The position numbers and the translations under genes were made by a program. This document shows, piece by piece, positions 28,225 to 62,540 of a stretch of 64,000 nucleotides of DNA; position 1 is the stretch's first letter; every line of letters begins with the position of its first letter. The DNA comes from an uncultured Candidatus Peribacteria bacterium (GTDB taxonomy: Bacteria; Patescibacteriota; Gracilibacteria; Peribacterales; Peribacteraceae): assembly GCA_964448405.1 (NCBI GenBank), contig CAYUVW010000001.1, positions 17,795-81,794 on the forward strand, read 5' to 3'. The notes beneath the pieces were generated by a model. It was not told the origin of the DNA and made no database searches. It saw only the letters and a program-made list of their open reading frames with translations.

Positions 28225-28229
28225 GGGAT

Positions 28230-28410
28230 AAAAAGGGGGAAGAGAGACACACCGCGAAATGGTCACTCTCTTCCGTGGAGAGATGAAGTGAACTGAGTGG
28301 TCACTATCTGTCCCCGGAAGGGGGCTGGATTTCCCACCGTCCTCCGGGCTCGGAGAGGTTGGGGGACATCGTATCGGGCCAGTTCCCACGATGTCACTCG
28401 TGATAGCGGT
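28230..28410 (-). promoter_or_regulatory. SAM-I (S-box) riboswitch with terminator-type expression platform
   Basis: The minus-strand RNA shows these elements. P1: CUAUCA...AGAUAG. P2: GACAUCGU / ACGAUGUC around GGGAACUGGCCCGAU. Then CCAACC. P3: CUCCG-AGCC-CGGAG. Then GGUGGGAAAUCCAGC. P4: CCCC-CUUCC-GGGG. Finally GAAGAGAG...CUCUCUUC followed by CCCCCUUUUUAU just before the metK AUG. Confidence 0.85.
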
Positions 28411-44616: not shown

Positions 44617-44852
44617 GAAATCCGTTCAGTATACCTCATTTCAGTTTTTCTGGCTTGTTCGCGAGATTGACTGCATTACAAGAGTATTTTCTTTTATTAA
44701 TATTCGATTGCTCGAACATTCCAAAAGATTACTTCACGTCATTTAATAGATATTTGCAAATATAAAGCCCGGTCAAAACACTCGTTTTCTGGTATACTTA
44801 TAGGATTTTGTTCTCCCACAAACACCAATATCGGCACGCACATGGTATTGCG

Positions 44853-46880: not shown

Positions 46881-46883
46881 ATC

Positions 46884-49800
46884 ATGCGCACCGCACAACG
46901 CATCATCGGCTCTCTGCTCCTGGTAGCCCTGCTACTGACTAACGTCGAGCCTGTCTTCGCCTCTACCTACGACAGCCTTACGGGTACCGCATTCGAGACG
47001 GTCGACGATGCTGGTCTAGGAGAAACAATTTATGCCCTGCGCTTTGGCAGTACCGTGCAACAGCAGCTCAGTTACAACACCACGCTCAATACGTTTATCT
47101 TTGCAGCGGGTCTAAAAGTCATCGGTACGCTGTCGGGCTCCAACTTGGTCATCGACCGCAATGCCAACCTTGGCGGAGCGCTGACTGCGACCGGCAATAT
47201 TCTCACAAAATCAACGCTTTCCGGACGCACGCTTATTATCTCCGGCGTGGCGTCATTCTCTGGCGCCGCTGTCTTTAAAAACGGCGTTACCCTGAAGAGT
47301 GGAACAGTCCTCTCTGGTCAGACGCTGCGCGTGTCCGGCAACTCCGATGTCCACGGTGCATTGTCTGTCACCGGAGCAGTACGTACAGACAGCAACCTCA
47401 CAATCAACGACGATGCCGATGCCAACAACGCAGTACTGACGTTCGGCAGTGACACCACCAACGAAACACTGACGTGGTTCAACTCGGCCGACCGATTCCA
47501 ATTCAGCGACGACGTCAGCATTGTCGGCAGCATTTCCGGTTCGTCATTGCGCGTAGACGGTGCCACCAGCATCTACGGCGCACTCGGCGCATCCGGCGCC
47601 ATTGTTAAAGGAACTGCTTCCGGACGCACATTACGCGTATCTGGCAATGCCGATATCCACGGCGCACTCGCGGTCACTGGTTCCATTGTTACCGATGGAG
47701 ACCTGACGTTGGGTGGCGACGACGCTGCAGCGAACGTGACGTTGACCTTCATGAATTCTGGTATCGACGAAACACTGACGTGGCTCGACACGACGAATAA
47801 ATTTTCGTTCTCCGATAACCTGGATATTATCGGCACCATCTCGGGTACTACCATTCGCAGCTGGGGCGCAATTGCCAACACCTTCTCCGGCTCGATTATC
47901 ACAGACTCTTCCTTCTCCGGTACCAGCTTCTTTGGCGCTGGTCTTGGGTCGTGCAGCAACGGTACCACCGACAAATTGCTCTATAACCCCTCCACAGGCA
48001 GATTCAGCTGTGGAACGGACCAGTCCGGCGGCTCGACCGGCGGAGGCGGCATTAGCTATGCGGCTGCCGAAGGCATGTTCGTCAACCAGGGCGGCGACAC
48101 CATGACCGGTGCGCTGAACGTAAACGTTACGAGCGCCGACGTCGTAAAAACGACCACTGGCGTCGCTAACGCTACGGATTTTTCCATTGCCGGCTCGACG
48201 TTGCTGAACGTGACGTCGGTCAACGACTCCCTTGTTATTAGCGATGGCACGGTGCCCAGTTCCGGACAAGGCACCATGGCCACATCCACTACCGTTACGT
48301 CCGCAAATGCCGGAGCCGGTGCGCATACCATTATTCGCGACGATGGAAAGTACGTCATTTTCCTTGGCAACAGCACGACGACGGTGAACATTTGGGATGG
48401 TATTGCCGGTGGAACTATGACCGCCGGAACCGCAACCAATGCCGCGCTTGGTGCTGGCGCTATTTCTCTGCGACGTTCGGACGGCAGGTACCTGGTGGTC
48501 CATGGCGGCGCAGCCACCACATCCACGCTGTACGATCCCTTTAACATCACCACTGTTGCCGGACCCACGCTGACCAGCTGTACTGCAACTACCGGAACCA
48601 ATGCATTCCTTGCGGCATCCGGTTCGTACGTCATCATGTGCGGAGGCTCCGGTAACTGGGGTTTGTATAACGGCACCACAAACATCTACAGCGCACAGGC
48701 TGCTGTGGGCGGTACATTCGCTGCTGGCGCACATGCCATTCAGCGCGACGACGGCAGCTTCCTTGTATTTGCCGGTGGCAACACCACAACGCACTGGCTG
48801 TACACACCGTACAACAACCAGTGGCAGCTGAACCCCATCACCACCAATGCTCCCACGATTACGACTGGAGCTTTTTCCATTCGTCGTCCGGACGGCATGT
48901 TCTTGGTAGTTCCGGGTGCTCAAAACAGCTCGTATATTTATGACCCGCGTCCCACAGCTGCGGATCGCGGAGCCGGTAGCATGACACAACAGTCCGGAGC
49001 GGGTTTTGGTCCAACCGTCGCACTTGCAGACGGTGCTCAGGCAATCTGGCGCCAGGACGGTAAGTATTTGGTGATGATCGGCGGCTCTACCACTACGAAC
49101 ATCCTGGATACCACGCGTACCGATGCCAACCAGTTCACGACCGGTCCAGCTATTCAAGGTGGTGCGCTCGGTGCCGGTGCGCACTCTTTCATCCGCACCG
49201 ATGGTAAAGTGCAAATTATCCGCGGAGGCGTCACCACAACTACAAGCACTTACGATATGGGTTACGTCGTCGGTGGGCCGTCTACCTCCACCGGCGCTAT
49301 TTACGAAAGCGAATGCATCACTTCTCCTTTGCTCGGTACGGGCTCGCGCATGGAATGGAACGTGAATGCCGAAGCCGGTTTAATGACCTTCCAAGTACGC
49401 ACTGGCAACGGCAGCTGTTCCGGTAACTACCGGGACATTCAAACGAACGGTGAGCTCGTCCGTCCCACTCCAGGCCATAACAGCGTCCAAATGCGGGTTA
49501 TTTTTAAGCGGACACTGCCGAAGTTCGTCGACCAAGAATGGGGTCTGCGCCGTGGCTTAAGCCAAACCCGCTACCGCCGTACGAACAAAGATCCCACGCT
49601 CTACGATATTGCCATTCGCAATACTGTGCTGCTGCACCGCACGCAGTTTGAATTCGGCGGATCAACAGATCCGTCGGGTCCGATTGCGGTGAATATCCAG
49701 AATGACCGCAATAAGAACCTGCAAATCGCGCTGGCGAACCAGGTGACGTACGGCACCACGTACAATACATCCCAGCAAGGTTACTATAACGGTGCGTTTA

Positions 49801-51740
49801 CCACACATCCGGTGCTGCCCACGGCCGCCAGTATTGGCACCATTGTGCTGAAGCGCCCGGATCGTAAATACATCATTCTGCCCGGTTCCGTAGCTTCCGG
49901 AGGAGCGGGTGTAGCCATGCTCTACGACGCCAACACCTATACGATCAACACCCAGGCAACAGCGCCCGCAACACGTACCTCCACCGGTGCGTTGGCATTC
50001 AAGCGTCCGGACGGGAAGTTCTTCATTGTCCATGGCGGCACCACTAAAACCACCACTATTTACGACCCCGTGGCAAATACCTACACGCCGGGTCCGCTGA
50101 TGACCCAGAACGTAGGAGAAGGTTCGCAGCCCATTCCGCTGCCGAACGGCAACGTGCTTATTCTGCATGGCGGCTTCCGTCGTACCACCACCATTTACAA
50201 CCCGTTCCAGAATACGACCATGACCGGTGCTCTTGCAACGAACATCATCGGTCGCGGTTCCATCGTCATCCCGCGTCCGAACGGCCAATATTTCATTGCT
50301 CCCGGCACCACGACGCATCTCTGTGCACCGCAAACGCCGACCATGCTTTACGATACGTATACGGGCATGTTCGTGAACAACAGTGCCGCGGCCATGGTGA
50401 CGGGTACCGGGCCCGGTGCGCTGACATTTGAGCGTAGCGACGGACAGTGGGTCATCATCAAGGGTGGAGGAACAACGAGCACGTGTGCCGGTCTGGCGAC
50501 TACGAACATCTATAACCCGTTCACCAATCAAATGGTCGTCGGTCCTGTGCCGACCGGTACCCGCTTTGGTACGCAGGCATTGCCTAGACCCGATGGCTCC
50601 TGGCTGATTGTGAACGGCAACGGTACGACTGCGTCCCAAATTTACTACGAGAAAACGGGTTTGTATTCCACCGGTCTTGCCGGACCCAACGGTATCGGTG
50701 CCTTCGTTGCAGGCCCCACGTTGCCCACCGCTACTGGTACGGGTTCAGTGGCGTTCCAGCGCGAAGATGGAAAGTTCGTCGTGCTTGCGGGCAGCAACAC
50801 GCCGGGCTCTGCCGGAACTACCACCGTCATGCAGTACGACGCCGGTTGGGTGACCAGCGGTTTCTATCGCAGCGAACACATCAATATTCCCAACTTAGAC
50901 AGTACGGCCACGCTCTCGTGGAAAGCATCACCAAGTTATGCCGGTATTTCTGCTGCTGTGCGGACCGGCACGTCGTCGTTGTCGTTGCAGGCAAACGACG
51001 AGCGTGAAATCAATCGTCCGGGCGACGCCATCAACCCGGGCGCCGGCCATACCTGGCTGCAGGTGACGTTCAACCTTGCACGCACCATTCCTACCTATAC
51101 GGGCATTGCTCAAGACGTCTGGTGGAACGGAGGAAGCACGAACCTCGTGACACAGCGCACCATCACCACGCCCACCATAACCGAGTTCTGGGTCGGCAAA
51201 GATGCCAATATGATTGACCTGAAAGCAGATAATCTTTCACTGTTCCGCGTGAACAGCAACGGCGATATTTACACCGGTAACAAAGGCTCGGTAAATACCG
51301 GAGGCGCCGACTTAGCAGAGCGCTATTCCTCGCCGGACGATCTGCAACCTGGCGAAGTGGTGACAATCGACTTCACCGACAGTCATGGCGTTCGTCGTTC
51401 TACCTCTGCGTATCAGCCTGAAGTGCTGGGTGTAGTCTCCACCAATCCCGGTTTCGTCGCCGGTGCGTTCACCAAGGGCTCGTACCCCATCGCTCTTGTC
51501 GGACGTGTTCCGGTAAAAGTAAGCCTGGAGAACGGCCCGATTCTTACGGGTGACCGCCTTATTGCCAGCAGTCTGCCCGGCTATGCAGCCAAGGCTCTGC
51601 GTGCAGGCCGCACGGTGGGCATGGCACTGGAGAGCGTAGACATTGCCAAAACAGAGCCCTGCGCCGCAGATAAACGCAAGCAGTGCGGCAGCGTGATGAT
51701 GTTCGTGAACCTGAGCGATTACGCCGGACCCGCAAAATAG
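46884..51740 (+). CDS. giant secreted protein (1618 aa): fibre modules, two Kelch-like propeller arrays, C-terminal fibre-end domain
   Basis: Starts 3 nt after gene A. Three copies of the fibre module, then ~8 plus ~7 repeats of the type GA.A..R.DGK.L...GG.T.TT..YDP..N. C-terminus GGADLAERY...VLGVVS.NPG...ALVGRVPVKV...GDRLIAS. Confidence 0.75.
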   Translation: MRTAQRIIGSLLLVALLLTNVEPVFASTYDSLTGTAFETVDDAGLGETIYALRFGSTVQQQLSYNTTLNTFIFAAGLKVIGTLSGSNLVIDRNANLGGALTATGNILTKSTLSGRTLIISGVASFSGAAVFKNGVTLKSGTVLSGQTLRVSGNSDVHGALSVTGAVRTDSNLTINDDADANNAVLTFGSDTTNETLTWFNSADRFQFSDDVSIVGSISGSSLRVDGATSIYGALGASGAIVKGTASGRTLRVSGNADIHGALAVTGSIVTDGDLTLGGDDAAANVTLTFMNSGIDETLTWLDTTNKFSFSDNLDIIGTISGTTIRSWGAIANTFSGSIITDSSFSGTSFFGAGLGSCSNGTTDKLLYNPSTGRFSCGTDQSGGSTGGGGISYAAAEGMFVNQGGDTMTGALNVNVTSADVVKTTTGVANATDFSIAGSTLLNVTSVNDSLVISDGTVPSSGQGTMATSTTVTSANAGAGAHTIIRDDGKYVIFLGNSTTTVNIWDGIAGGTMTAGTATNAALGAGAISLRRSDGRYLVVHGGAATTSTLYDPFNITTVAGPTLTSCTATTGTNAFLAASGSYVIMCGGSGNWGLYNGTTNIYSAQAAVGGTFAAGAHAIQRDDGSFLVFAGGNTTTHWLYTPYNNQWQLNPITTNAPTITTGAFSIRRPDGMFLVVPGAQNSSYIYDPRPTAADRGAGSMTQQSGAGFGPTVALADGAQAIWRQDGKYLVMIGGSTTTNILDTTRTDANQFTTGPAIQGGALGAGAHSFIRTDGKVQIIRGGVTTTTSTYDMGYVVGGPSTSTGAIYESECITSPLLGTGSRMEWNVNAEAGLMTFQVRTGNGSCSGNYRDIQTNGELVRPTPGHNSVQMRVIFKRTLPKFVDQEWGLRRGLSQTRYRRTNKDPTLYDIAIRNTVLLHRTQFEFGGSTDPSGPIAVNIQNDRNKNLQIALANQVTYGTTYNTSQQGYYNGAFTTHPVLPTAASIGTIVLKRPDRKYIILPGSVASGGAGVAMLYDANTYTINTQATAPATRTSTGALAFKRPDGKFFIVHGGTTKTTTIYDPVANTYTPGPLMTQNVGEGSQPIPLPNGNVLILHGGFRRTTTIYNPFQNTTMTGALATNIIGRGSIVIPRPNGQYFIAPGTTTHLCAPQTPTMLYDTYTGMFVNNSAAAMVTGTGPGALTFERSDGQWVIIKGGGTTSTCAGLATTNIYNPFTNQMVVGPVPTGTRFGTQALPRPDGSWLIVNGNGTTASQIYYEKTGLYSTGLAGPNGIGAFVAGPTLPTATGTGSVAFQREDGKFVVLAGSNTPGSAGTTTVMQYDAGWVTSGFYRSEHINIPNLDSTATLSWKASPSYAGISAAVRTGTSSLSLQANDEREINRPGDAINPGAGHTWLQVTFNLARTIPTYTGIAQDVWWNGGSTNLVTQRTITTPTITEFWVGKDANMIDLKADNLSLFRVNSNGDIYTGNKGSVNTGGADLAERYSSPDDLQPGEVVTIDFTDSHGVRRSTSAYQPEVLGVVSTNPGFVAGAFTKGSYPIALVGRVPVKVSLENGPILTGDRLIASSLPGYAAKALRAGRTVGMALESVDIAKTEPCAADKRKQCGSVMMFVNLSDYAGPAK

Positions 51741-51771
51741 CCCCCCATTTCCACGAAGCGGAAATGAGGGG
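51741..51771. terminator. hairpin between convergent giant genes
   Basis: CCCCCCATTTCC-ACGAAGC-GGAAATGAGGGG (one mismatch). Confidence 0.45.
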
Positions 51772-51783
51772 CGTGACGTGGTT

Positions 51784-54216
51784 CTAGTTTTCAAATTCCA
51801 AGATCAACTTCGGCGCCAGCGACAAATCGCCGACAGCGCCTTCCTTGGAATAGAATTTAATGTTTCCCGAGTGATTCTCGTGTGTTTTTTGGATCAGCCA
51901 TCCATTGTTTGCGCCTGCCAACACATCCTGCGTGACATCAAACGACACTTCACCGCTCATGCCATTGGTAATGGTCATCGTCGGCGCAGTGCGCGGCGCT
52001 ACAGAGGCATCGCCGCCATCCCAGTTGCCATTGCAATCTTTCTCGGTATTGGCAATCTCCGAATCCGTTGCGCATTTCCATGTCACACCGGGTCCGTTGC
52101 CGCGCGTGGAGTCGGCTTCCGGTACGTCCAGGTCTTTGCCATTACCTTCGGACCAACTCGAAAGCAATCGGCGCACCTCAATCGGACTGCCGCCGTTCTT
52201 CCAGTTCGACGGGGGCATGGAGCCAATGGTCAACACCAGCGTCGCCTTCTGCAGACCCGATAAATTTTGTCCGGCCAAATCGAATCCGACAAGCGAGCGA
52301 ATGTCGCCTTTTTTCCGTACGAGCAGCATGGGATTTATACCCTCATTCGTGTTCGACTTTCCCTCTCGCAAGAAGGCGTCTTGGGTCAGTGTGATCAGCC
52401 GGATGGTCCGACCGGGGCCAATGACCTGCTCCGTCGAACCGATATTCACCGTAATTTCATCGGGATTCGCTTCAGCGGCGGTGAATGCCGAGTAGCCGTC
52501 GAAGGCAAGAGTATTGCCCACATCGTAGCTGGTTGTGGTGGTGATGCCGTCGGGTGCTACGAAGGTGGTGTCGACGCTGCCACTTTTCACGCCGATGTGC
52601 GCGCTGCCGCACAGCACTTCAATCGCATCGCCGGATTCCAGCTGACTTTCGGCGAGTCCGTTGCACATGCTCACGTCGGCGGGCTCTTCCGCATCACCCA
52701 GCTTTGCCTCTATCACGATGCCGGCTGCAGATTCCTCCTCATCACTATCGACAATAATCAAGTTTTGATCAGCTCGATCCACGACCGTTCCGATGGTTGT
52801 GCCCTCATGCAGCATTGCATCACTGAATTCATTGGTGAAATCATCCGGAGCAATATCCACTTCGTTGTAAATACCGTCGCCGTCATTGTCTTGTTTGTAT
52901 TTCACAACGAACGCATCCGAACCGCCGCTGTTGGTTTGCCCTGGTAATGCGCCTAGGGTTTCTCCCATGGCGAAAATATGATGCAGCGTCGGGTCCAGAC
53001 CAACGGCACGCGCAGCGTCATCGAACGCGGTACCGAATTGCGTATACCAGCGCAACTGGCCATCGTAACTGTAGTACTGCAATAAAAAGGCATCGGTCCC
53101 GCCCGCGTTTGTATAGTTGGGCAAAGCGCCGGTAGTTGTACCGCTGACGTACGTCAGGCGATTCCCGGCAAACGCGGCACCACTGACGATGTCATCGCCG
53201 CTGGTGCCGAACTGCGTCAGCCATTCAGGCGAGGCGCCGATATTAATTGGGAAGCCGCGCAGAAAGGTGTCTGCGCCGCCGGCATTCGTAAAGCCCGGCA
53301 TGCTGCCATAGGTGGTTCCTGCAACCACGGCATCTTCTTCCAGGCTGTTCGCCGCCGCATTCGCTTCATCGTACTGCGCGGTGCCGAATTGTACAGTAAG
53401 GTTTTCATTGCCGGTCGTCACGTCGATGCGGCGCATGAATGCATCTGTGCCTCCCGCACTGACCTGGTCTGGCAAAGTACCTGCTGTGGCGCCCGAGACA
53501 ACCACCTCCGTTGAGGCACCGAAATCCACTCCGGTGGCCCAGTCGTCAGCATCCGACCCCCACTGATCGATCCAGCGGATGCTCAGATCCGACCCCAGTC
53601 GTGCCGTGAATGCGTCGAAGCCACCGATGTTCGTTTTCCCAGGAAACGCGCCGCTCGTTTTGCCGGCAATCAACGATCCCGCCTGTTCTCCGTCCGCGCC
53701 CAGCGCATAGTCGTCGCCATCGGTACCGAATTGCAACATGCTCGTGTGCTGCGGCTCCAGGCCCGGGTCGTATTTTCGTACAAAAATATCCACGCCGCCG
53801 GCGCTCGTTTGTCCTGCGAAGGTTGCGTTTGTGTAGCCGACGACGTGAATTCCCGTCTGCTCAATGGCAACGCCGGTCACCACGTCATCTCCGCTGGTGC
53901 CGAATTGCTCAACAAACAGAAGGTTGCCGTGGCGGTCGTATTTTCGGATCCAGCCATCGGTTCCACCTGCACTGCTCTGCCCCGAAAGCACCCCGTCCGT
54001 TGTACCGGCAACGAAAGTGTTGCCGTCGTCATCTACGGCACGGGCTGCCTCGTTGCTCGCCGTGGCGGTTCCGAACTGGCGTATCCAGGAGAGCTCTGGT
54101 GTTCCTGCTGCAAAGACATTCCCGGCTGGCAGCAGCATGCTCAGCGCGAGCGAGGCGGCGACAAGAACGCGCGAAGTGCGCTTTCTTGCCGTAACGACAT
54201 TTTTACTAGAAAACAT
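51784..54216 (-). CDS. secreted SBBP-type beta-propeller repeat protein with C-terminal carbohydrate-binding-like domains
   Basis: Signal peptide. About 8 repeats of FGT.GDD.(A/V).G.A......(V/I)(V/A)G.T.G.(L/F)PG....GG.D.F(V/L)(R/K). The tail contains AFLREG..NTNEG (the DNRLRE-type pattern as I recall it). Confidence 0.75.
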   Translation of the reverse strand: MFSSKNVVTARKRTSRVLVAASLALSMLLPAGNVFAAGTPELSWIRQFGTATASNEAARAVDDDGNTFVAGTTDGVLSGQSSAGGTDGWIRKYDRHGNLLFVEQFGTSGDDVVTGVAIEQTGIHVVGYTNATFAGQTSAGGVDIFVRKYDPGLEPQHTSMLQFGTDGDDYALGADGEQAGSLIAGKTSGAFPGKTNIGGFDAFTARLGSDLSIRWIDQWGSDADDWATGVDFGASTEVVVSGATAGTLPDQVSAGGTDAFMRRIDVTTGNENLTVQFGTAQYDEANAAANSLEEDAVVAGTTYGSMPGFTNAGGADTFLRGFPINIGASPEWLTQFGTSGDDIVSGAAFAGNRLTYVSGTTTGALPNYTNAGGTDAFLLQYYSYDGQLRWYTQFGTAFDDAARAVGLDPTLHHIFAMGETLGALPGQTNSGGSDAFVVKYKQDNDGDGIYNEVDIAPDDFTNEFSDAMLHEGTTIGTVVDRADQNLIIVDSDEEESAAGIVIEAKLGDAEEPADVSMCNGLAESQLESGDAIEVLCGSAHIGVKSGSVDTTFVAPDGITTTTSYDVGNTLAFDGYSAFTAAEANPDEITVNIGSTEQVIGPGRTIRLITLTQDAFLREGKSNTNEGINPMLLVRKKGDIRSLVGFDLAGQNLSGLQKATLVLTIGSMPPSNWKNGGSPIEVRRLLSSWSEGNGKDLDVPEADSTRGNGPGVTWKCATDSEIANTEKDCNGNWDGGDASVAPRTAPTMTITNGMSGEVSFDVTQDVLAGANNGWLIQKTHENHSGNIKFYSKEGAVGDLSLAPKLILEFEN

Positions 54217-54385
54217 AAAAGAAAAAAGTAAAAAAATAAAAAAGCAAAGTTAAACAGACAATACTAAGCTTTTTCTTTTAAAATAAACAAATGACGAACG
54301 ACATAAAAAGTATAATACGCAAATTCTACTTAACATTTTTGTTGCCTCAATGCGCTACTTGCGCAAGCGCTCCCTCTGGAGGATC

Positions 54386-55417
54386 ATGGGCGGTAACCTC
54401 CGTATGAACCGCCTCTTTTCGTCTCGCATTTTCATCGCCTGCGCTGCCGCACTTCTGGCGGGCTCCATCAGCGGGTTTGCGGTACTAAAATTGCACGGGC
54501 ATTTCGATGTGCGCTGCCTCCAGCGATTTCCATTACTCAGTCCGTTTGTTCCATGTGAATCGCAGGAGCCACTCGTGTTCATGCCTGAGTACGAAGAGTT
54601 TCAGGCCAACCTGAGCGATTGGATCGATACACAAAAACAGGCCGGCCTCATTACAGAGGGCGCCGTGTATTTCCGTGACCTTGTTGGCGGACCGTGGTTC
54701 GGTATTCGCGAAACAGCGGAATTCGTTCCTGCCAGCTTGTTTAAGGTACCGGTAATGATCGCCATCCTTCGTGCCTCGCAAGATGTCCCCGGACTTCTTG
54801 AACAGCAGGTGGTCATGTCCGGCTCCTATACCGGACTCATGAATGTCGAGCATCCCAGTGAGTCGCTGGAGTCGGGAGTTCCGTATACCGTCAATCAACT
54901 TCTGGAAAAGATGATCGTGTATTCGGACAATGCCTCGTCCGATTTACTGAAAGACGTGCTGCGTTCCATTGATGAAACAGGCAAGTCCGTCGAAACCATT
55001 TATCGCCAGCTTGGTATGTATTCCGCGGCCACTGAACATCGTTTGTCCGTGAAGAACTATTCATCACTGTTCCGCGTGTTGTTTAACGGCAGGTATTTGA
55101 GCTACGAAATGTCCGAGAAGGCGTTGGAATTACTCAGTCGCTCAGCCTTTACCGATGCGCTGGTTGCAGGAATTCCTAAGGGGACAAAAGTCGCACATAA
55201 ATTCGGCATTCGCGATGTTCCAGGCGAAGATATAAAGCAATTCCACGATTGCGGGATTGTGTACTATCCCAAGCGTCCGTACCTCTTGTGTATTATGACT
55301 CGAGCATCGGATACGGAGAGTGCCATTATGTTCATTCGCGAGGTGTCGCGACGCGTGTATAAGCAAGTCGATGACCGCATGAGTGCGAATGAAGAGTCAT
55401 TGTACGACATGCGGTAA
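54386..55417 (+). CDS. class A beta-lactamase-like serine hydrolase
   Basis: SxxK (ASLFKVP), SDN (YSDNASS) and a KTG-position HKFG. N-terminal TM/signal. Start at 54386 (GGAGG upstream) or 54404. Confidence 0.7.
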   Translation: MGGNLRMNRLFSSRIFIACAAALLAGSISGFAVLKLHGHFDVRCLQRFPLLSPFVPCESQEPLVFMPEYEEFQANLSDWIDTQKQAGLITEGAVYFRDLVGGPWFGIRETAEFVPASLFKVPVMIAILRASQDVPGLLEQQVVMSGSYTGLMNVEHPSESLESGVPYTVNQLLEKMIVYSDNASSDLLKDVLRSIDETGKSVETIYRQLGMYSAATEHRLSVKNYSSLFRVLFNGRYLSYEMSEKALELLSRSAFTDALVAGIPKGTKVAHKFGIRDVPGEDIKQFHDCGIVYYPKRPYLLCIMTRASDTESAIMFIREVSRRVYKQVDDRMSANEESLYDMR

Positions 55418-55435
55418 ACAACACGTAAAAGAAAA

Positions 55436-55457
55436 ACCCCTCTTGGTGCAGAGGGGT
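55436..55457. terminator. bidirectional intrinsic terminator
   Basis: ACCCCTCT-TGGTGC-AGAGGGGT, with an A run upstream and a T-rich tract downstream, between convergent genes. Confidence 0.65.
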
Positions 55458-55499
55458 TGTTCTCGTTTGAAGAAAGTGTTCGCGAGTGTTCGGTCAGGC

Positions 55500-57152
55500 T
55501 TACGGGAGCGTCGATTCGAAGTTCAGGTTAATGAATCCGGCTGCGGCATAGGCGTTGGCGGTGTTGTTTGCGGCCAGCTTCACGTAGAGGGTGACGTAGC
55601 CCTTGGGCGTCCAGGTGCCTCCGGTTTCAGGTCCTTTGATACTTGCGGTGGTAAAGGAGGTGCTGGCGAGGTTATCTGCGCCTGTCAGGTCGCGCATGAC
55701 TCCTGCGGTGTCGCGGATACGAAGGGTCACGTGGTTGTTGGCGGTAGAGGCGACACCGGTCTTGTAGCGCAGTTCAATCGGCTTGGTCACGTCCCATGTG
55801 CTGAAGTTGTCCGGCAGGCGGACGCGGACGGAGATCCAGTAGTCGTTCAAGGCGGCCTTGGTGGAGGTCCACTTGAAGGTGTTGTCCAGGCCGGTCGTGC
55901 CACCCGACAAGGACATTTGGCCTACGAACACGGCACCGCTGGCGAAGTAGATTGCGCCTGGGTATTCGGGGTGCAGCGAGAGAATCTGTCCGCTACCGTT
56001 GCTGCCTGCACCAGTCTGGTCCGTAGCACATTCGAACTTACCGGTTGCCGAGTTGTAGACGACCTTCTGGTTCGTTCCGTTACACGTTGCCAGTCCAAAG
56101 CCCTGGATCGTGGAGCCGGACAAGGCGCCTTCGATCGTGAGCGAGCCGGACATAGTGTGCGTACCGTTGCCGGAAATCTTGAGCGTGGTGCCCGAAATGG
56201 TGCCGTTCACGTCCAAGTCATCGGACAGGTAGAACTTATCGGTGGTATCGAGCCAGGTGAATGTTTCGTCGGTACCCGAATTCATGAAGGTCAATGACAC
56301 GTCCGCTGCAGCGTCATCGCCACCCAACGTGATGTTGCCCTCCGTAAGGATGGAACCCGTCACGGCAAGTGAGCCATTGATGTCTGCGTTACCAGACACA
56401 CGCAATGTGGTGCCGGACAAGACCGTCTTGGCGGTAATGGTCGATACACCAACTATGGCGCCAGTGACGGTAAGCGTTCCGCCCACAGTGGCGTTACGAT
56501 CCACGTTCAGAGCCGAGCCGGAAATGGTTCCCAGCACGGAAATACCCCTGCTGAACTGGAACTTTTGAGCGGAGTTCAAGAAGGTGATGCTTTGGTTGCC
56601 CGAGGTGTTACCGAACGTCAACACGGCGTTGTTCGAGTCGGCATCATCATTAATAGTAATATTTCCATCCGTGCGGATCGCTCCAGAAGCAGTCAGCGCT
56701 CCCTGGACGTCTGCATTACCGGACACACGCAACGTGGTACCGGACAACACCGTCTTCGCAGTAATAGTCGACATACCCAGCACGGCGCCGGTGACAGTCA
56801 ACCTTCCACCCACGGTGGCGTTGCGATCAACGTTCAAGTTGGAACCCGACAGTGTGCCAAGAACACTCAAGCCCGCGGAGAATTGGAATTTTCCGTTGGT
56901 CAGGTATTTCAAGGTGATACCGCTGCTTCCGAAGCGCAGCTCGATGTCGGTGCTGCCGTCTCCACCATCAATTTGCTGGAACGATTCCGTGTTCACCAGC
57001 AATGTTGGTGCCCAGCTGCCCGCGGCCGACGCCAGTGGCGCCAGTGCAGCGAAAGCAATCGAACCAAACGCGATTCCAGCAATGAATTTGCTGGCCCGTG
57101 CGTAGCTGCGGGGAAGTGTGTATGTGAACATAAATATTTGTTGGTATCGCAT
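55500..57152 (-). CDS. secreted fibre-like surface protein C (paralog of A)
   Basis: SWAPTLLVNTESFQQIDGGDG and three fibre modules (LSGTTLRVSGNADVQGALTASGAIRTDGNITINDDADSNNAVLTFG...). The C-terminal beta-sandwich-like domain is shared with 57341..59647. Confidence 0.75.
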   Translation of the reverse strand: MRYQQIFMFTYTLPRSYARASKFIAGIAFGSIAFAALAPLASAAGSWAPTLLVNTESFQQIDGGDGSTDIELRFGSSGITLKYLTNGKFQFSAGLSVLGTLSGSNLNVDRNATVGGRLTVTGAVLGMSTITAKTVLSGTTLRVSGNADVQGALTASGAIRTDGNITINDDADSNNAVLTFGNTSGNQSITFLNSAQKFQFSRGISVLGTISGSALNVDRNATVGGTLTVTGAIVGVSTITAKTVLSGTTLRVSGNADINGSLAVTGSILTEGNITLGGDDAAADVSLTFMNSGTDETFTWLDTTDKFYLSDDLDVNGTISGTTLKISGNGTHTMSGSLTIEGALSGSTIQGFGLATCNGTNQKVVYNSATGKFECATDQTGAGSNGSGQILSLHPEYPGAIYFASGAVFVGQMSLSGGTTGLDNTFKWTSTKAALNDYWISVRVRLPDNFSTWDVTKPIELRYKTGVASTANNHVTLRIRDTAGVMRDLTGADNLASTSFTTASIKGPETGGTWTPKGYVTLYVKLAANNTANAYAAAGFINLNFESTLP

Positions 57153-57340
57153 TACTATAGCACACAGAGAGAAGAAGGTGTAGAGCGTTCATCTTGACCA
57201 TTATGTATTTTGTGGCGTGATATATTCGCTCAGAAAAGTGGTTTGAAGTGGATCTTTGCTTATATAAATGCCAAAAAGTCGACCGCGGCAAAAATTGGAC
57301 AAAATAGAATAATGTATTCCTTATAGTATAAAGGAAGCGC

Positions 57341-59647
57341 TTACTCTCGTCGGAGCTCCACGTACTGCATTTTCAGGCTGCCGATATGCACCTGGAAGTT
57401 GTCTTTTGCGGACGCGCGGATGCGGATCAAGAAGTCTTGTCCCGGAGTCCATGTTCCACCGCTGCCGATGTCGATACCGCTGGTGGTCCAGCTGGTATTC
57501 GCAAGGTTGGAAACAGAGCCGGACAAGGTGACCGGTACGCCGTTGGTATCGTAGACTTGAATGTCCACTTTGTTCGCGGCATTGCTGGCATTGGTCGTGC
57601 GGTAATCCAGGCTCAGCGGATTTTCGGCACCACCCGCCTTCCAGCGGACGAAGTTCGGCGACAGATGTGCCTTCAACAAGATGTCGTAGTCCTGCAGCAC
57701 TGGGCGCGTGCTCGACCAATCATAGAAGTTTATCTTTGTTGTATTGTCGTGACTGACCTGCAACTGACCGATGTTATCGGTACCGTCGCCCTGGTAGCTG
57801 GCATGTTCGAACTCCGGATTGAAGACGGTTTGCACCGTGGTTTCACGGTCGTCACTATTCAGGATGCGACGATCGGTGATGGTCAGCACGTTCGAGCCGT
57901 TGGTCGTTACTTCGGCAACCGGAATGTACGACTCGTCGGTCGGGTAGCCGAGCGTAGTCACAGTCAGTCCTCCGGAGCCGAAGAACACGTAGCTGGAGGT
58001 GCTGGCGGGAACAGCCACGCCGCTGGCGCCTGCATAGTTGGTGACGACTCCATTCAAGCGGTAGCTTCCACCGGAAACCATAATCGTCAGTCCGGCACCG
58101 GCGTATGCTTTCAGTGCGCCGGTGGAACTCTGCAGCGAACCCAGGTTGACGCCGTTCACCAGACCGGTGACGGTCAAGTCTCCTTGAATGCGCACATCGT
58201 CATTGAAGTTGAACCAGCCGTTCACGCTGTCGTAGCTCAGTTGCTTGGACAGCGCGTTACCGAATTGCAGCACGACTTCGGTGGCGGCGCTGTCGTCGTT
58301 GTTCAGTACGAAGGTGTTTGCATTCGTGCCGCCGGGGATGGTGCTCTTGGGCAGCAAGCCGCTCAGGTCCAACACCGGAATATTGAAGCTGCCGGTTCCA
58401 GTGTCGTGCTGGTCGAGCAACTCGGCGTTGTTTGCAAACGGTACGGTGGTCACGCGCGAGCGATCCAACGCAGTATCGCTCGGGTTGGTGTCCAGCAACT
58501 CATACGAGGTATCCGGATCGCCGGCCATCTTCACCTCTACTTGCAGGTGGAGGTTCTTCAGGGTGTCCACCGGCAGCGTGCTGAAGTCGATGAGCGGCGT
58601 GACTTTGCCGAGTTCAACCGAGAAGTAACCCTGTGCGGTCGGCGTGACGGTTTGTACTTCGTTCCAGCTGACATAGTTGGTGGCACTCGTATTGATTGCG
58701 CCGCCGCCCGTAAGATCCGAAGTCACGAAGTCGGAGCTCTTCCAGTAGCTGAAGCGAATGGTGACCGCCGTCGTAATAGGTGTGCCGCTGGCGTTCAAGA
58801 GGTTGCCCTTATAGGTGCTCAAGAGCGGAGTGGTCGTGTTGGCGGCGTGTGCGGTGAACGGCATGCCGAGGAGCAGCAGTCCCAGCGCAAGCGAGAACAG
58901 TGCCAGCAACACGCTCATGGCAACCGTGCGATTGCGCTTCTTTTTCAAGAACGTGCGGATGCGCTTGTGCAGCACGTACGTCATGGCGCTGCTGCCGGCA
59001 ATCGCAATGCAGAACAGTGAGATCCACATCCAGACCCATGTGGCGGTTTCCGTTGCTGCACCGTGCAGCGTTTCTGCAGGAGGACAGAGCGGATCAACCG
59101 CACCGAAGTACCGCAGATTCAGTGCCGTACCGTCGATCGACGACGTATCGTATGTCGTTTCCGTCCATGCCGAGCTCGACAGATCGGTCGTTGTTTCTTC
59201 GGCCGATGCGCTGCTTGCCGAACTTGCAATCGGATACGTCTGCGGTACACGCGGGCCACGAGAACTCGTGCTGCTCGAATGCGTGCTTGCACTTGCACTG
59301 CTTGCCGCAGGATGCGGTCGGGAACCGCCGCCGCTCGTACCGGCATTACCTCCGGTGCTTCCGCCGCCGGTCGTGCCACCCGCGCCGGTCGACGAACTGC
59401 TGCTTGTGCCGGCAGTCGTTGCGGGTCCGGTCGTCAGGATGAAGTTGTTTCCAGTGAGGACCGAATCGTTCCACGTCACGCCGTTGTTCATGTGCTGGAA
59501 CGACGTGCTTACGCCCGGATCTCCGGTAGCGTTGTCGCCCATGCTTTCTTGCAGCTGGAACGACGTGCTCACCTGAGCCATGGCGACCGGTGCGCTCAGA
59601 GTGAGCGCCAGGAGTGCCAAGCCGATGCTGGTGACGAAGCGTCGCAT
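57341..59647 (-). CDS. surface protein D: signal peptide, Ser/Thr/Gly-rich domain, internal TM hairpin, fibre module, shared C-terminal domain
   Basis: See finding at 58844-59038. The C-terminal ~170 aa parallel those of protein C (..GGTWTP(G/K)..). Confidence 0.7.
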   Translation of the reverse strand: MRRFVTSIGLALLALTLSAPVAMAQVSTSFQLQESMGDNATGDPGVSTSFQHMNNGVTWNDSVLTGNNFILTTGPATTAGTSSSSSTGAGGTTGGGSTGGNAGTSGGGSRPHPAASSASASTHSSSTSSRGPRVPQTYPIASSASSASAEETTTDLSSSAWTETTYDTSSIDGTALNLRYFGAVDPLCPPAETLHGAATETATWVWMWISLFCIAIAGSSAMTYVLHKRIRTFLKKKRNRTVAMSVLLALFSLALGLLLLGMPFTAHAANTTTPLLSTYKGNLLNASGTPITTAVTIRFSYWKSSDFVTSDLTGGGAINTSATNYVSWNEVQTVTPTAQGYFSVELGKVTPLIDFSTLPVDTLKNLHLQVEVKMAGDPDTSYELLDTNPSDTALDRSRVTTVPFANNAELLDQHDTGTGSFNIPVLDLSGLLPKSTIPGGTNANTFVLNNDDSAATEVVLQFGNALSKQLSYDSVNGWFNFNDDVRIQGDLTVTGLVNGVNLGSLQSSTGALKAYAGAGLTIMVSGGSYRLNGVVTNYAGASGVAVPASTSSYVFFGSGGLTVTTLGYPTDESYIPVAEVTTNGSNVLTITDRRILNSDDRETTVQTVFNPEFEHASYQGDGTDNIGQLQVSHDNTTKINFYDWSSTRPVLQDYDILLKAHLSPNFVRWKAGGAENPLSLDYRTTNASNAANKVDIQVYDTNGVPVTLSGSVSNLANTSWTTSGIDIGSGGTWTPGQDFLIRIRASAKDNFQVHIGSLKMQYVELRRE

Positions 59648-59651
59648 GGGG

Positions 59652-60239
59652 CTACGCGGTCGGCAGGGGAGGAAGTGGGAGCATGGAGAGCGGGTCCTCG
59701 TCAGTTTCCGAAGCAGACGCAGGAGTGAGCTGCGTCGTGTTGATTGCCGTGGTGGTGTCCTGCTCCGTGCTCGTTACGATTTCCGTTTCGCCACGCTTCT
59801 GCATGTGCGATGCCTTTTCACCGAAGAACAATTTGTGACGAGCGATAACGCGGCCGACGGTCGACACAGACACTTCGATGCCGTAGATCTCGCGCAGCAT
59901 GGCGTGAATGCCGACCTTGCCCGTGGTCGGGTGAGCCATGCGCAGTTCGCGAATGGCGGCTACCGTTCGGGCATCGGTTTCGGGCGCGCGTACGGCATGC
60001 GGCCGACGCGACGTTTCCTCCAGGCTCGACACGTTCTGCGCGTCGAAGCGATTCCACCAACGCATGAACGTCGAGCGTGCAATGCCGAAGTGTCGGCATG
60101 CCAAGCTGACGTTGTTGTCATGTTCGAGTGTGTACAAAAACCACTTCAAACGCTGCACCGCTCCGGCACTCAATTCCAACTCGACGGCCTGCTTCAGCAG
60201 GCGTCGTACATCGGCCAATCGTGTATCGCGGGCGGACAT
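59652..60239 (-). CDS. transposase-derived helix-turn-helix protein (IS481-type N-terminus, no catalytic core)
   Basis: CRHFGIARSTFMRWWNRF...LEETSRRPH...IRELR...VSVSTVGRVIARH matches the N-terminal DNA-binding region of IS481-type transposases. The ORF ends after 195 aa without a DDE domain. Its stop is 4 nt before the start of protein D. Confidence 0.7.
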   Translation of the reverse strand: MSARDTRLADVRRLLKQAVELELSAGAVQRLKWFLYTLEHDNNVSLACRHFGIARSTFMRWWNRFDAQNVSSLEETSRRPHAVRAPETDARTVAAIRELRMAHPTTGKVGIHAMLREIYGIEVSVSTVGRVIARHKLFFGEKASHMQKRGETEIVTSTEQDTTTAINTTQLTPASASETDEDPLSMLPLPPLPTA

Positions 60240-60409
60240 GAATTTTGATTTTTGTTTTTGGTGCGCGTTAGTGCGTACCTTGTTCTTGTAACTTTACTAT
60301 GCTTAATTTTAGCAGAGTTGGCACAAAATGTCTATGTGCTGCAGTGTAAGTTTCTGAGCTTCCGTTTCACAGTGCCAAAAAGCCCGATTTTGCTGCTTGC
60401 AGAATGGCT

Positions 60410-61400
60410 TTCGCATCTGTTTGAACTTTGCCCTAGTCACGGCCAATCGTTTTCAAGACCACAATCGCGAATGGGCTGACGTTGCTTTGGCTTCAAAAAT
60501 CGCATCTGTCTGATCTTCTCCCATCCCGCATTGTCGCCGCCGTGGAGGGAGGAATTTGGCGCTGCATGGTACCGAAAACCGTATGCAGATCTGCCTGAAC
60601 TTTCGTCAGGAATCCAGGTCCTGTGATCACCTTCCGCTGCTTGAAAACCGCATTGCGATCGACAGGGGTGAGCGCGCATCTGTTCGAGCTTCTGCCTGTT
60701 TTGGCTGTGGACATCATCGAATGACGGCTTCAGCGCGAAACAAAGTCTTCTGCGTAGCGCATGTATTCGAGCTTGTGACGTGCTGTCAGTATTTTGTTTT
60801 TTAAAAATTATTTATAGTTTTTGTCAATGAAGCATGTGCATATGAACTTTGGCCTGTTCGTCGGCTTTTGTTCAAAAAATCACACTGCATTCTGAGTCGT
60901 AGCGATTGCCTGTGATCTTCTCGCAATCCACCAAGAGCATTCTTGCCTTTTTCGCTGCAGCAAGGGCTCGGCATCTCTTTGAACTTGGGCCTGCACAAGC
61001 CGTAGGAGCGGCGCTTCATCGGGCTTCAGGGACGAGGGTATTGCAGCGTTCTGCTTGGCATTGTTTCAGATGTGTGTGAGCTTCTTTTTCCCGCAGCGAG
61101 ACGGATGCTTTTTTGCTATTGTTTCGCCAGTCGACTGCAGCGCATGCATCGGAACTGAGGGCTTGAGCATTGACTGAAATGTAAAAAATACTTGTCGTAA
61201 CAAAAATGACGGAAACTCTGTGCATCGGAGAGCAGAGGTGTTGCAGAAGTGTTCGAACTTACGACGTCTGCATGGGCTCTTTTCCAGACCATGCAAATTA
61301 TTGACGCATGCAGCACGTGAACGAGAGCCCTTTCTGAAGCCAAAAATAGCAATTGATGTCGCATGCGTGCATGGTTGTACGCATGTGATTGAACTTATGG
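60410..61400 (+). repeat. degenerate ~85-bp direct repeat tract (>=11 units) with the 19-nt core GCATCTGTTYGARCTTNNG
   Basis: Cores read at 60423, 60512, 60597, 60686, 60769, 60844, 60914, 60981, 61078, 61255 and 61391, all in the same orientation. The region is visibly lower in GC and has no credible ORF. Confidence 0.75.
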
Positions 61401-61475
61401 CATACAGATGCGATTCGCTTGTGGTTCGATCACGGATTTTGTACCATTGCGAATACTCGTTTCCTACGTTTACAC

Positions 61476-62540
61476 ATGTCTAAAACTCCCCTCTCCAGGT
61501 TTGCCAGCGCATGGTTGGTAGTTTCACTCCTGGTCGGCTCCGTTCCATTTGCAGCGGCACAGAGCCAGCCGCAATCGTTCACCGATGTGCCGCCGTCACA
61601 CGCTGCGTTCTCTGCGGTGGAGTATCTGAAGAGCAAGGGCATGGTGCAGGGCAATGCCGGTGGAACGTTCGGTCCCAACGACAAACTGACACGCGCTGCA
61701 GCAATTAAAATTCTGGTCTCCGGTTTGCTGAGTGCGGGCGAGACAATCGATGCCGGTGCAACCAGTTCATTCAACGACATGGCCGGCACGCCGTGGGCGA
61801 TTCCGTACGTCGAGTTGGCGCTCAAGAAATACAAACTGATCGATGGTCCGCCGGCAAAGCCGTCGTTCAATCCGGGTGTCGTGGTGAAGAAGGCGGAGTT
61901 CATCAAAATGGCTCTTGCCTCCAAGCAGATCGATGCCAAGTCCGCGTTCAGCGAAATCAATTCGCCGCTTGCTACGGACGTTGCCAAAACCGACGACTGG
62001 TTCTACCCGTTCATGCGCTATTCGCTCACGTCGTCCATGACCAGCGTGAGCACCGACGGCACGCTGAATCCGGCCAAGGAAATCACCCGCGCTGAAATGG
62101 CACTGTTGCTCTACCGCCTGGATATGTACCGCGCAGGACGCCGAACGCAAGCCCTGCTCTCGCAGACCGAAGGTGACATCGTCAACTTGCTGAAAATGCT
62201 GGATGCCAAAGACATCAACCAGGCCAAGTACGCTTCGGCACGTGCGATTCTTACATCGCGCGGAGCGCTTGCCAGCAAGCCGAACGAAGCAGTGGTGAAA
62301 GGTGCCGTGAAGACAGCCGAAGGATTCGGATTGTTGGTGCAGGCCTACGAAGCAGGTACGGCCGGGCAGTACGACACCGTCATTGCCTTGGCAAAAGAGG
62401 CTTATGCCGCCGCCGACAAAGCTCGCGCATTCAGCCCGAATTTGGAATCCATCGCCGCGCAGATGCAGTCCATTGCCAAGAAGATGGCCGACGACGCACG
62501 CACGCTGAAGGCCGGAGGCACGCCTGCACCCGTTCAGTAA
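61476..62540 (+). CDS. S-layer-homology (3x SLH) domain protein with helical C-terminal half
   Basis: Signal peptide. FTDVPPSHAAFSAVEYLKSKGMVQGNAGGTFGPNDKLTRAAAIKILV plus two further SLH-like units. Start at ATG 61476. Confidence 0.8.
   Translation: MSKTPLSRFASAWLVVSLLVGSVPFAAAQSQPQSFTDVPPSHAAFSAVEYLKSKGMVQGNAGGTFGPNDKLTRAAAIKILVSGLLSAGETIDAGATSSFNDMAGTPWAIPYVELALKKYKLIDGPPAKPSFNPGVVVKKAEFIKMALASKQIDAKSAFSEINSPLATDVAKTDDWFYPFMRYSLTSSMTSVSTDGTLNPAKEITRAEMALLLYRLDMYRAGRRTQALLSQTEGDIVNLLKMLDAKDINQAKYASARAILTSRGALASKPNEAVVKGAVKTAEGFGLLVQAYEAGTAGQYDTVIALAKEAYAAADKARAFSPNLESIAAQMQSIAKKMADDARTLKAGGTPAPVQ

Follow-up and report, generated by a model that had tools for sequence, protein, structure and literature searches.

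What fills a region of more than a kilobase that separates two divergent genes and encodes no protein? This question is raised by a stretch of 64,000 nucleotides (nt) from an uncultured Candidatus Peribacteria bacterium (GenBank assembly GCA_964448405.1, contig CAYUVW010000001.1, positions 17,795 to 81,794 of the forward strand), which is called the window here and to which all coordinates refer. The region, window 60240-61475 (1236 nt), lies between the gene for a protein with SLH domains and the gene for a protein of 195 amino acids (aa) with two helix-turn-helix (HTH) units. Its GC content is 0.47, compared with 0.56-0.64 in the flanks, and the longest open reading frame (ORF) inside it is 87 aa, with none retained across the orthologous regions; this agrees with a preliminary description of the DNA, made from the letters alone, which had called the region ORF-free and lower in GC and had proposed eleven same-orientation repeats in it. 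The repeat array is real and runs in one direction only, but consists of 13 rather than eleven head-to-tail copies of a bipartite box of ~25 nt. The region is quite probably an array of docking sites that acts in cis at the level of DNA, and not a gene, a duplication or an RNA. Given such an array, it is likely that the adjacent two-HTH protein is what binds it. The complete proposal, that the array docks this protein and thereby carries a nucleoprotein complex of fixed geometry over two divergent promoters, takes that binding as presumed and has in our view about an even chance of being right.

The box has the consensus tcGCATCTGTyTGArCTT in this region. A search with the 16-mer GCATCTGTTYGARCTT, allowing up to three mismatches, gave six matches in the 64 kb, all of them on the + strand and in the region, and none of 100 shuffled sequences reached six. 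The 13 copies were detected with a 28-nt matrix built from the arrays at 35 species' loci, which include those of the window's close relatives (L021, L008 and L022); they score 9.7-27.9 bits, are all on the + strand and all lie within 60340-61402, and the best score in the window outside the array is 11.4 bits. All eleven positions given previously for the G of GANCTT were recovered by the matrix, and two copies were added, one strong (G at 60357) and one weak (G at 61153). The class-wide consensus is TG-a-CRCATGTG-TCTGANCTTT, which the logo writes as TG-a-CRCATGTG-TCTGANCTTt, and its information is concentrated in two blocks (positions -16 to -10 and -8 to +1) with centres ~9.5 bp apart, roughly one helical turn. 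The N of GANCTT is A (0.35), T (0.40) or G (0.23), and almost never C (2%).

Only the box is repeated. Identity between spacers within the array was 0.457, against 0.454 for shuffled spacers, and Tandem Repeats Finder did not detect an array in the region; the repeat unit of ~85 bp suggested at first is therefore replaced by a ~25-nt box that recurs at intervals. A tandem repeat array of the variable number tandem repeat (VNTR) or mycobacterial interspersed repetitive unit (MIRU) type was rejected on these same grounds, as the units are not alike over their full length. A second block that was thought to recur between the boxes proved marginal, with one exact copy and two others that carry two mismatches. 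The supposed extra copy of the core at 44710-44720 was rejected, since its score is -2.0 bits.

The locus was compared with those of relatives of the HTH protein, which are numbered with the prefix L and of which ~35 are Peribacteria loci, obtained from exact-protein look-ups and one scan of species-representative genomes. When the 1.5 kb upstream of the HTH gene was scanned with the matrix in 35 loci, 233 boxes were found in the window's + orientation and one in the opposite orientation, and the motif thus recurs beside the HTH gene and its promoter in orthologous loci of 35 species. The order of a divergent SLH gene, a long intergenic region, the HTH gene and genes for proteins of ~760 and ~550-650 aa is kept in ~31 of the 35 loci. 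The comparison of related genomes that had been recommended at the outset therefore revealed a conserved array in ~31 species, and not an ordinary gene. The number of boxes per array varies from ~3 to 13 between species, and the box itself occurs in variants, with several species carrying GATCTT, others GA[AG]CTT, and L029 GGAACGTT. In species with few matrix matches a de novo repeat search found diverged boxes in L029 and L038 (for example GGATGTGTCGGAACGTTC) and no array in L048, L052 and L054; the intergenic regions of L048 and L052 are short (~440-460 nt).

Alignment of the window with L008 and L009, whose HTH proteins are 88-90% identical, shows about a dozen conserved islands; besides the boxes, these are two AT-rich islands, 130 nt at the HTH end and 70 nt at the SLH end. 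The DNA between the boxes is 20-50% identical. Orthologous boxes are 73-78% identical, non-orthologous boxes 53-54% and spacers 45-51%. As orthologous boxes are more alike than non-orthologous ones, every box has retained its individual departures from the consensus, without concerted evolution.

The distances between the boxes are also conserved. Between the window and L008, at a synonymous divergence (dS) of 0.4-0.8 in the flanking genes, nine of the 11 intervals are exactly equal and the remaining two are off by 1 nt. Each interval holds its own value to within 1-3 bp (67-70, 75, 97-98, ~101 or ~135 bp), and the series, which ends 75-70-67-97-75-101-136 in the window, reads 76-72-67-98-75-100 in L023, 69-148-69-97-75-101-133 in L036 and L012, 69-146-71-98-75-142-135 in L037 and 69-75-70-167-74-142-135 in L026. 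Partial series such as 69-97/98-75 are present in L036, L037 and L030, where the HTH protein has only 50-70% identity to that of the window, and in small arrays such as those of L049 and L051 the intervals are 68-71 throughout. The window's lineage has undergone a lineage-specific expansion by four extra units (89-85-89-83; window 60423-60769), which are missing from most other Peribacteria. The intervals are multiples neither of 3 nor of 10.5, and a common spacing of about eight helical turns, as first suggested, does not hold, as the intervals range over 67-136 bp and the number of turns is not constant.

This retention of distance and lack of frame bear on one reading of the array, in which it is a decayed protein-coding repeat, the pseudogene of a protein with ~29-residue repeats and the motif x-H-L-F-E-L-x-P. 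One frame per copy does read H-[LVM]-x-[ED]-L, with the two variable bases on first and third codon positions. We regard a coding origin as very remote, since no frame is open in the three orthologous arrays (each of the six frames is interrupted by stops in the window, L008 and L009, at differing places) and intervals such as 67, 89, 85, 83, 70 and 97 are not multiples of 3. Moreover, the array is retained without an intact gene in ~31 species with flanking proteins down to ~50% identity, over which a pseudogene would lose both boxes and spacing. The middle codon is free (F, S, P, I or C), and the avoidance of C at the N of GAN is not predicted by codon degeneracy. The H-[LV]-x-[ED]-L reading arises incidentally from CATNTG...GANCTT.

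The sequence of the spacers behaves differently from their length. Between the window and L021, whose HTH protein is 97% identical, the spacers differ by 149 scattered substitutions (84 transitions and 65 transversions) with almost no indels, a divergence of ~0.12-0.23 per site compared with 0.11-0.17 at third codon positions of the flanking genes. No strand skew was found in 13 kb of spacers (AT skew 0.009, GC skew -0.014), and no periodicity of A/T dinucleotides was seen in them. Because the L021 substitutions are near the third-position rate and there is neither skew nor periodicity, the spacer sequence is taken to drift about neutrally and the spacer length to be under strong selection. 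The spacers of L008 are ~50% identical to those of L009 and L022 and have a mosaic look, with some 20-nt windows common to different pairs. Targeted diversification of the spacers, of the kind associated with CRISPR or with diversity-generating retroelements (DGR), was considered on account of the fast L008-L009 spacers, and was dropped because in the closest pair, window and L021, the substitutions are scattered in the ordinary way and have accumulated at about the third-position rate.

A short repeat with unique spacers, in units of which those of 67-75 nt fall within the CRISPR size range, and with spacers that are unrelated between moderately distant strains, could also be read as a degenerate CRISPR-like array of repeats and acquired spacers of fixed length. 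The chance of this is next to none. The repeats are only ~54% identical to one another and each keeps its own variant across species, the orthologous spacers of the window and L021 show point substitutions and no gain or loss of spacers, and the series of interval lengths is static across the class. Domain scans covered 38 of the window's ~44 genes, to which the statements on gene content in this text apply, and no cas domains were found. Ca. P. riflensis has been reported to lack CRISPR-Cas (PMC4736985).

The array is framed by putative promoters. In a sigma-70 scan of all arrays only the HTH-proximal promoter was conserved; it has the form T[AG]GACA-17-TAnAAT, lies 55-105 nt upstream of the HTH start codon in ~25 of 28 species and is 5-10 nt from box 0, which in the window stands 5 nt upstream of the -35 hexamer. 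Conservation in a five-species alignment is highest over the 130 nt next to the promoter. On the SLH side, TTGCCA-16-TACCAT directly follows the last box of L023, in a place that matches the putative SLH promoter of the window, and an inverted-repeat search showed that box 12 and the inverted half-box next to it form a dyad just upstream of that promoter. Within the array, most species have an AT-rich stretch after the third or fourth box. The minus strand of this island (60790-60830) reads TTGACA-17-TATAAA in L008 and L009 and TTGACA-17-TTAAAA in the window, where the consensus promoter scan did not call it as a promoter. There is a second conserved island outside the boxes, GCATTGACTGAAA at 61167-61179. 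An internal promoter or an unwinding element are possibilities for these two islands.

The boxes could themselves be promoters, either in tandem or dependent on an activator, which an alternative sigma factor would use to drive very high expression of the SLH gene. The -35 element of promoters for extracytoplasmic function (ECF) sigma factors is GGAACTT, and several tandem promoters are known upstream of S-layer genes. The TGAACTT of the box is similar to this element, an RNA polymerase footprint is about as long as the common spacing of 67-75 bp, and the S-layer genes supply the precedent for promoters in tandem. Nevertheless, we consider this highly unlikely. The invariant second A of the ECF 'AAC' corresponds to the freely variable N of the box; a -10-like element is absent 16-18 nt downstream, where there is only a weak preference for G at +14 to +16 (0.16-0.37 bits); and no sigma-70-like promoters were found at the boxes. 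The strongly conserved upstream block CRCATGTG is left unexplained by promoters, which also do not require conserved distances between them.

Alternatively, the array may act as RNA, with its + strand transcribed either into a long leader at the start of the SLH mRNA or into an RNA of its own, and with the boxes as repeated sites at which an RNA-binding protein or RNase would bind or process the transcript (a sponge, or a processed RNA of many units). All boxes are oriented as the SLH gene, and no strong sigma-70 promoter is predicted near the SLH start. S-layer mRNAs are known to have long leaders, and the SLH gene might by analogy have one. This too is quite unlikely, as RNAalifold, applied to nine units on both strands, gave the same energies as for column-shuffled controls and a conserved secondary structure was not found. 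There was no match in Rfam at the gathering score or at E <= 1, and a tRNA search found none. The spacers lack the strand asymmetry that heavy transcription might give, no + strand promoter is conserved upstream of the array, and an exact spacer length with free sequence is unusual for RNA elements.

The gene beside the array suggests how DNA-level sites of this kind might be used. Its 195-aa product matches Pfam HTH_28 and HTH_32 and covers positions 1-112 of the 284-position NCBIfam model of the IS481 transposase (E 1e-21); the catalytic part of IS481 is absent from it, and the next gene has no Pfam match. An active insertion sequence of the IS481 family was rejected, as only positions 1-112 of 284 are covered, there is no DDE domain and the locus is single and syntenic. 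When the family profile was compared with structures, residues 95-137 matched the RED subdomain of Sleeping Beauty transposase (5UNK, E 0.007). The AlphaFold model has two three-helix units joined by a linker and followed by a disordered acidic tail, with a mean predicted local distance difference test score (pLDDT) of 73 and values of 86-94 over most of the HTH units; a fold search with the protein gave weak matches (E > 0.2), led by Pax paired domains and the end-binding domains of TnsB. The C-terminal ~50 residues (window 59652-59800) end, after the acidic stretch, in a conserved peptide, D-P-[LF]-x-[LF]-P-x-P-[GP]-[ILV]-[TA]-S (DPLSMLPLPPLPTA here), which looks like a docking peptide for a partner. 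There are ~86 relatives of equal short length, of which the named ones are from Candidatus Peribacteria (phylum Peregrinibacteria of the Candidate Phyla Radiation, CPR), and none were found in viral contigs. The nearest full transposases (L056-L100, from Acidobacteria and others) belong to multi-copy IS481-family elements of ~1.07 kb with the terminal repeats TGT[TA]CTCGT[TC]CA...ATGATTAGTGACACTC; those of Acidobacteria are ~41% identical in the HTH region, and their terminal repeats are inverted. Judging from its sequence, the 195-aa protein is a domesticated, bipartite domain for the recognition of transposon ends.

A module of this two-HTH type suits an asymmetric site of ~25 bp with blocks one helical turn apart, and the two HTH units do correspond in number to two blocks with centres ~9.5 bp apart, which shows fit and not contact. 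The two-HTH protein is the obvious candidate binder because it is always linked to the array, its fold fits the box and the array frames its own promoter. The earlier suggestion of phased binding sites for the adjacent HTH protein thus survives in part; binding sites fit the array best, and helical phasing does not. In the proposed mechanism, each box would dock one molecule of the 195-aa protein, with one HTH unit per block, and 13 monomers would load head to tail into a higher-order complex that may resemble a transpososome or intasome without catalysis. Such a complex would span the DNA between the divergent promoters and could set the output of both surface-protein promoters, with box 0 abutting the -35 of the operon for the HTH and surface proteins, and box 12 and the inverted half-box abutting the putative SLH promoter. 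The deviations kept by single boxes might then produce a graded order of occupancy. We infer the protein as binder, the higher-order complex and the transcriptional output.

Several points weigh against this proposal. Binding of the boxes by the 195-aa protein is a step that we infer. An ordinary operator array could do without exact spacing that is specific to each interval, and the geometry of the complex is unexplained because the distances are not multiples of 10.5 bp. The definable IS481 terminal repeats (Acidobacteria) share only CACATG or TCAGA..ATG with the box, which is not significant. In a covariation check, no HTH residue separated the species with GATCTT boxes from those with GA[AG]CTT boxes; residue 54, at the start of the first recognition helix (FGI[A/S]RST), is Ser in seven of eight GATCTT species and Ala in ten of 13 GA[AG]CTT species when kinship is ignored, and it may be a specificity determinant on the basis of this loose trend, in which phylogeny is ignored. 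The spacers of L008 and L009 differ by ~0.5-0.55, above the dS of 0.23-0.52 in the flanking genes. Finally, the box scan covered 64 kb of the genome, so that boxes elsewhere, and hence another binder, are possible.

Alternatively, the array could have a structural role in the chromosome, and the iteron or centromere-like array put forward in the preliminary description is kept as a minority rival. In this reading, the array would not regulate genes. It might be a site of chromosome organisation, perhaps like a centromere, or a replication origin, either of the iteron type or non-canonical, and its boxes would form a defined nucleoprotein complex with a DNA-binding protein, comparable to oriC, plasmid iterons and sopC/parC. 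In enterobacterial comparisons, oriC is classically marked by conserved boxes between which the spacers keep their length but not their sequence, and the array resembles this pattern. It also contains a conserved AT-rich island, as the unwinding element of an oriC would be AT-rich, and this island reads as a minus-strand promoter in L008 and L009 as well. In L019, jag/khpB, HU and topA lie within 5 kb on the SLH side, and the GC skew at 4-fold sites points to an origin at some place beyond the array on that side. The paper on Ca. Peribacter riflensis describes an origin that is not recognisable from gene content and has short repeats nearby (PMC4736985).

The same skew, however, has one sign on both flanks of the array. 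Corrected for coding strand, it is -0.056 on the window's + strand over 60 kb on the HTH side, making the + strand the C-rich (lagging) strand; on the SLH side the polarity is the same, at +0.054 in locus orientation for 29 loci pooled and ~+0.11 as our average of the per-gene values of five species with proper gene calls (L012, L013, L016, L018 and L019). As the polarity is the same on both sides, the origin seems to lie further out on the SLH side. An apparent switch of GC skew at the array was rejected, since the S/T-rich genes for surface proteins on the HTH side have a skewed codon usage that produces it, and the estimate from the 60-kb window takes precedence. DnaA boxes (TTATCCACA, up to one mismatch) occur three times in the 64 kb and not in the region; dnaA, rep, parA/parB or SMC-type genes were not found among the scanned genes; the number of boxes differs between species; and the lack of HTH protein relatives in viral contigs also speaks against an element of this sort. 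A chromosomal replication origin at the array is thus disfavoured, although less firmly than the other excluded readings, and because the skew test is indirect an origin or centromere is kept as the main rival, unlikely as we hold it to be. In one version the array and its transposase-derived binder would form a fixed-geometry machine with a chromosomal role, either a centre for organisation or segregation close to the origin (which would parallel, in bacteria, CENP-B on satellite DNA) or an origin region without DnaA boxes as noted in Ca. Peribacter riflensis. This version, also unlikely, is entertained because the docking model leaves unexplained the exact interval lengths that are unrelated to helical phase, and if true, it would explain class-wide constant intervals with free sequence between the boxes.

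The docking array and the chromosomal site can both be set against known systems. Transposon ends (the TnsB sites of Tn7 and CRISPR-associated transposons, CAST; Mu L1-L3/R1-R3; the inverted repeat/direct repeat structure, IR/DR, of Sleeping Beauty) likewise have several asymmetric, directly oriented sites of ~20-30 bp, each read by a bipartite HTH domain, and there the spacing matters and the intervening sequence does not. The 195-aa protein is homologous to their binders through the IS481 N-terminus and the RED subdomain of Sleeping Beauty, with weak fold matches to TnsB and Pax. Unlike these ends, the array has no catalytic domain and no second inverted end, its locus is single-copy in class-wide fixed synteny and hence not mobile, it holds 13 sites over 1.1 kb compared with 2-7 over 50-250 bp, and its box has no significant similarity to the IS481 terminal repeats that can be defined. 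Origins of the oriC or iteron type and copy-control arrays (R6K, P1 incA) share direct boxes, fixed spacers of free sequence, an AT-rich island and an adjacent gene for a DNA-binding protein; in contrast to them, the array has no GC-skew switch or DnaA boxes, the protein is not of the Rep or DnaA family, and iterons are usually ~22 bp apart, not 67-136 bp. Plasmid centromeres (F sopC with 12 x 43 bp, R1 parC and tubC) also combine ~10-13 direct repeats with a small DNA-binding protein in a higher-order complex, but their repeats are near-identical, evenly spaced and located beside a partition NTPase gene, which was not found among the genes scanned. In CENP-B and the CENP-B box of alpha-satellite, too, the DNA-binding domain of a domesticated transposase meets a short box once per repeat unit in a long array; that system is eukaryotic and pogo-derived with homogeneous satellite units, whereas here only the box is conserved, and the likeness is one of mechanism only (fold search E 3.8).

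Bacterial operator and enhancer-like arrays are similar in their position between divergent promoters, with boxes at both -35 regions and an adjacent regulator gene that is likely autoregulated. They differ from the present array in its size of 1.2 kb, its 13 sites, its strictly single orientation and its class-wide interval-specific spacing, and we know of no described bacterial operator region of such size, site number, orientation and spacing conservation. A full-text literature search found no description of such an element. Both components are of known kinds, one being a transposase domain that has been domesticated and the other an array of repeated binding sites; their combination, in the scale of the array, its single orientation and its class-wide interval conservation with neutral spacers, was matched to no described bacterial system.

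The genes around the array encode the SLH protein, the transposase-type HTH protein, surface proteins, a beta-lactamase-like protein and an MFS/spermidine synthase. The HTH gene heads the downstream operon, as first described, and is separated by only 4 nt from the 768-aa gene that follows. A class-A beta-lactamase-like gene comes after the ~550-650-aa gene in eight loci with gene calls reaching there (L001, L002, L003, L012, L013, L016, L018 and L019). The large proteins at window 44808-57152 and 57341-59647 (768, 550, 810, 1618 and 690 aa) have no or weak Pfam matches; several of those at 44808-59647 are predicted to be secreted and are rich in Ser, Thr and Gly, with a strongly C-rich 4-fold skew on the coding strand. 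Orthologues of the 550-aa protein have 'faint' bactofilin matches and possibly form a beta-helix. In the same strain, outside the window and ~5 kb past the SLH gene, a second HTH_32 paralogue of 248 aa lies in a minus-strand gene run (L001 2846-3592), with neither a long intergenic region nor a box array upstream of it. Elsewhere in the window, an S-adenosylmethionine (SAM) riboswitch (RF00162, 44.6 bits) is located at 28301-28409 on the minus strand, immediately upstream of metK; as the GTG start of the mechanical ORF 27070-28389 falls inside this riboswitch, metK must start further downstream.

Features of the SLH-HTH intergenic region and its flanking genes (window coordinates; scores are those of the 28-nt box matrix)
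Feature	Position	Strand	G of GANCTT	Score (bits)	Remarks
768-aa secreted or membrane protein gene	57341..59647	-			second in HTH operon; 4-nt gap after HTH gene
Gene for 195-aa two-HTH protein	59652..60239	-			presumed box binder; IS481-type transposase N-terminal DNA-binding part, without catalytic domain
Intergenic control region, whole	60240..61475				long intergenic counterpart in ~31 Peribacteria species, ~360-1800 nt
Hairpin, conserved	60260..60279	-			presumed 5' untranslated region of HTH mRNA; terminator-like on + strand in scan; stretch 95-100% identical among window, L008 and L009
HTH-operon promoter, predicted sigma-70 type	60306..60334	-			TAGACA-17-TAAAAT, TG before -10
Box 0 (TGCAGTGTAAGTTTCTGAGCTTCCGTTT)	60340..60367	+	60357	21.3	about -41 to -68 of HTH promoter; same-offset box in nearly all species
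Box 1	60407..60434	+	60423	25.5	conserved in L008 and L009
Box 2, GATCTT variant	60496..60523	+	60512	25.9	variant shared with L008, L022 and L021
Box 3	60581..60608	+	60597	22.9	
Box 4	60670..60697	+	60686	18.5	
Box 5, ATGTATTCGAGCTT variant	60753..60780	+	60769	19.5	variant also in orthologues
AT-rich island within array, conserved	60790..60830				our reading of the alignment
Box 6	60828..60855	+	60844	20.8	
Box 7, GATCTT variant	60898..60925	+	60914	20.1	
Box 8	60965..60992	+	60981	18.1	
Box 9	61062..61089	+	61078	27.9	highest-scoring
Box 10	61136..61163	+	61153 (weak)	9.7	weak here; 17.4 bits in L022
Box 11	61239..61266	+	61255	15.6	
Box 12	61375..61402	+	61391	20.1	about -52 to -79 of putative SLH promoter; 95-100% identical in L008 and L009
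Inverted half-box (reverse complement of AATCGCATCTGTATG; CATACAGATGCGATT)	61401..61415	-			directly after box 12; conserved in L008, L009 and L012
Putative SLH promoter	61419..61447	+			TTGTGG-17-TACCAT; 8 of 12 matches, below tool threshold; our own reading
SLH-domain protein gene	61476..62540	+			divergent partner of array; three SLH domains, E 1e-25

Exact, interval-specific lengths over ~1 kb with neutral spacers, kept class-wide, point to a defined three-dimensional architecture of DNA and protein, which has so far been known mainly from origins, intasomes and transposon ends and not from bacterial promoter regions. The locus also offers a tractable in-vitro test system for an unculturable organism, consisting of one small protein and one DNA fragment, and the box array can serve as a sequence marker for the locus in metagenomes. 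If the docking array is as proposed here, it would be a clear case of bacterial 'molecular domestication', in which a transposase's domain for recognising ends persists as a host protein alongside a large array of its docking sites, and it would concern the control of cell-surface genes in a major uncultured lineage, the Peribacteria of the CPR.

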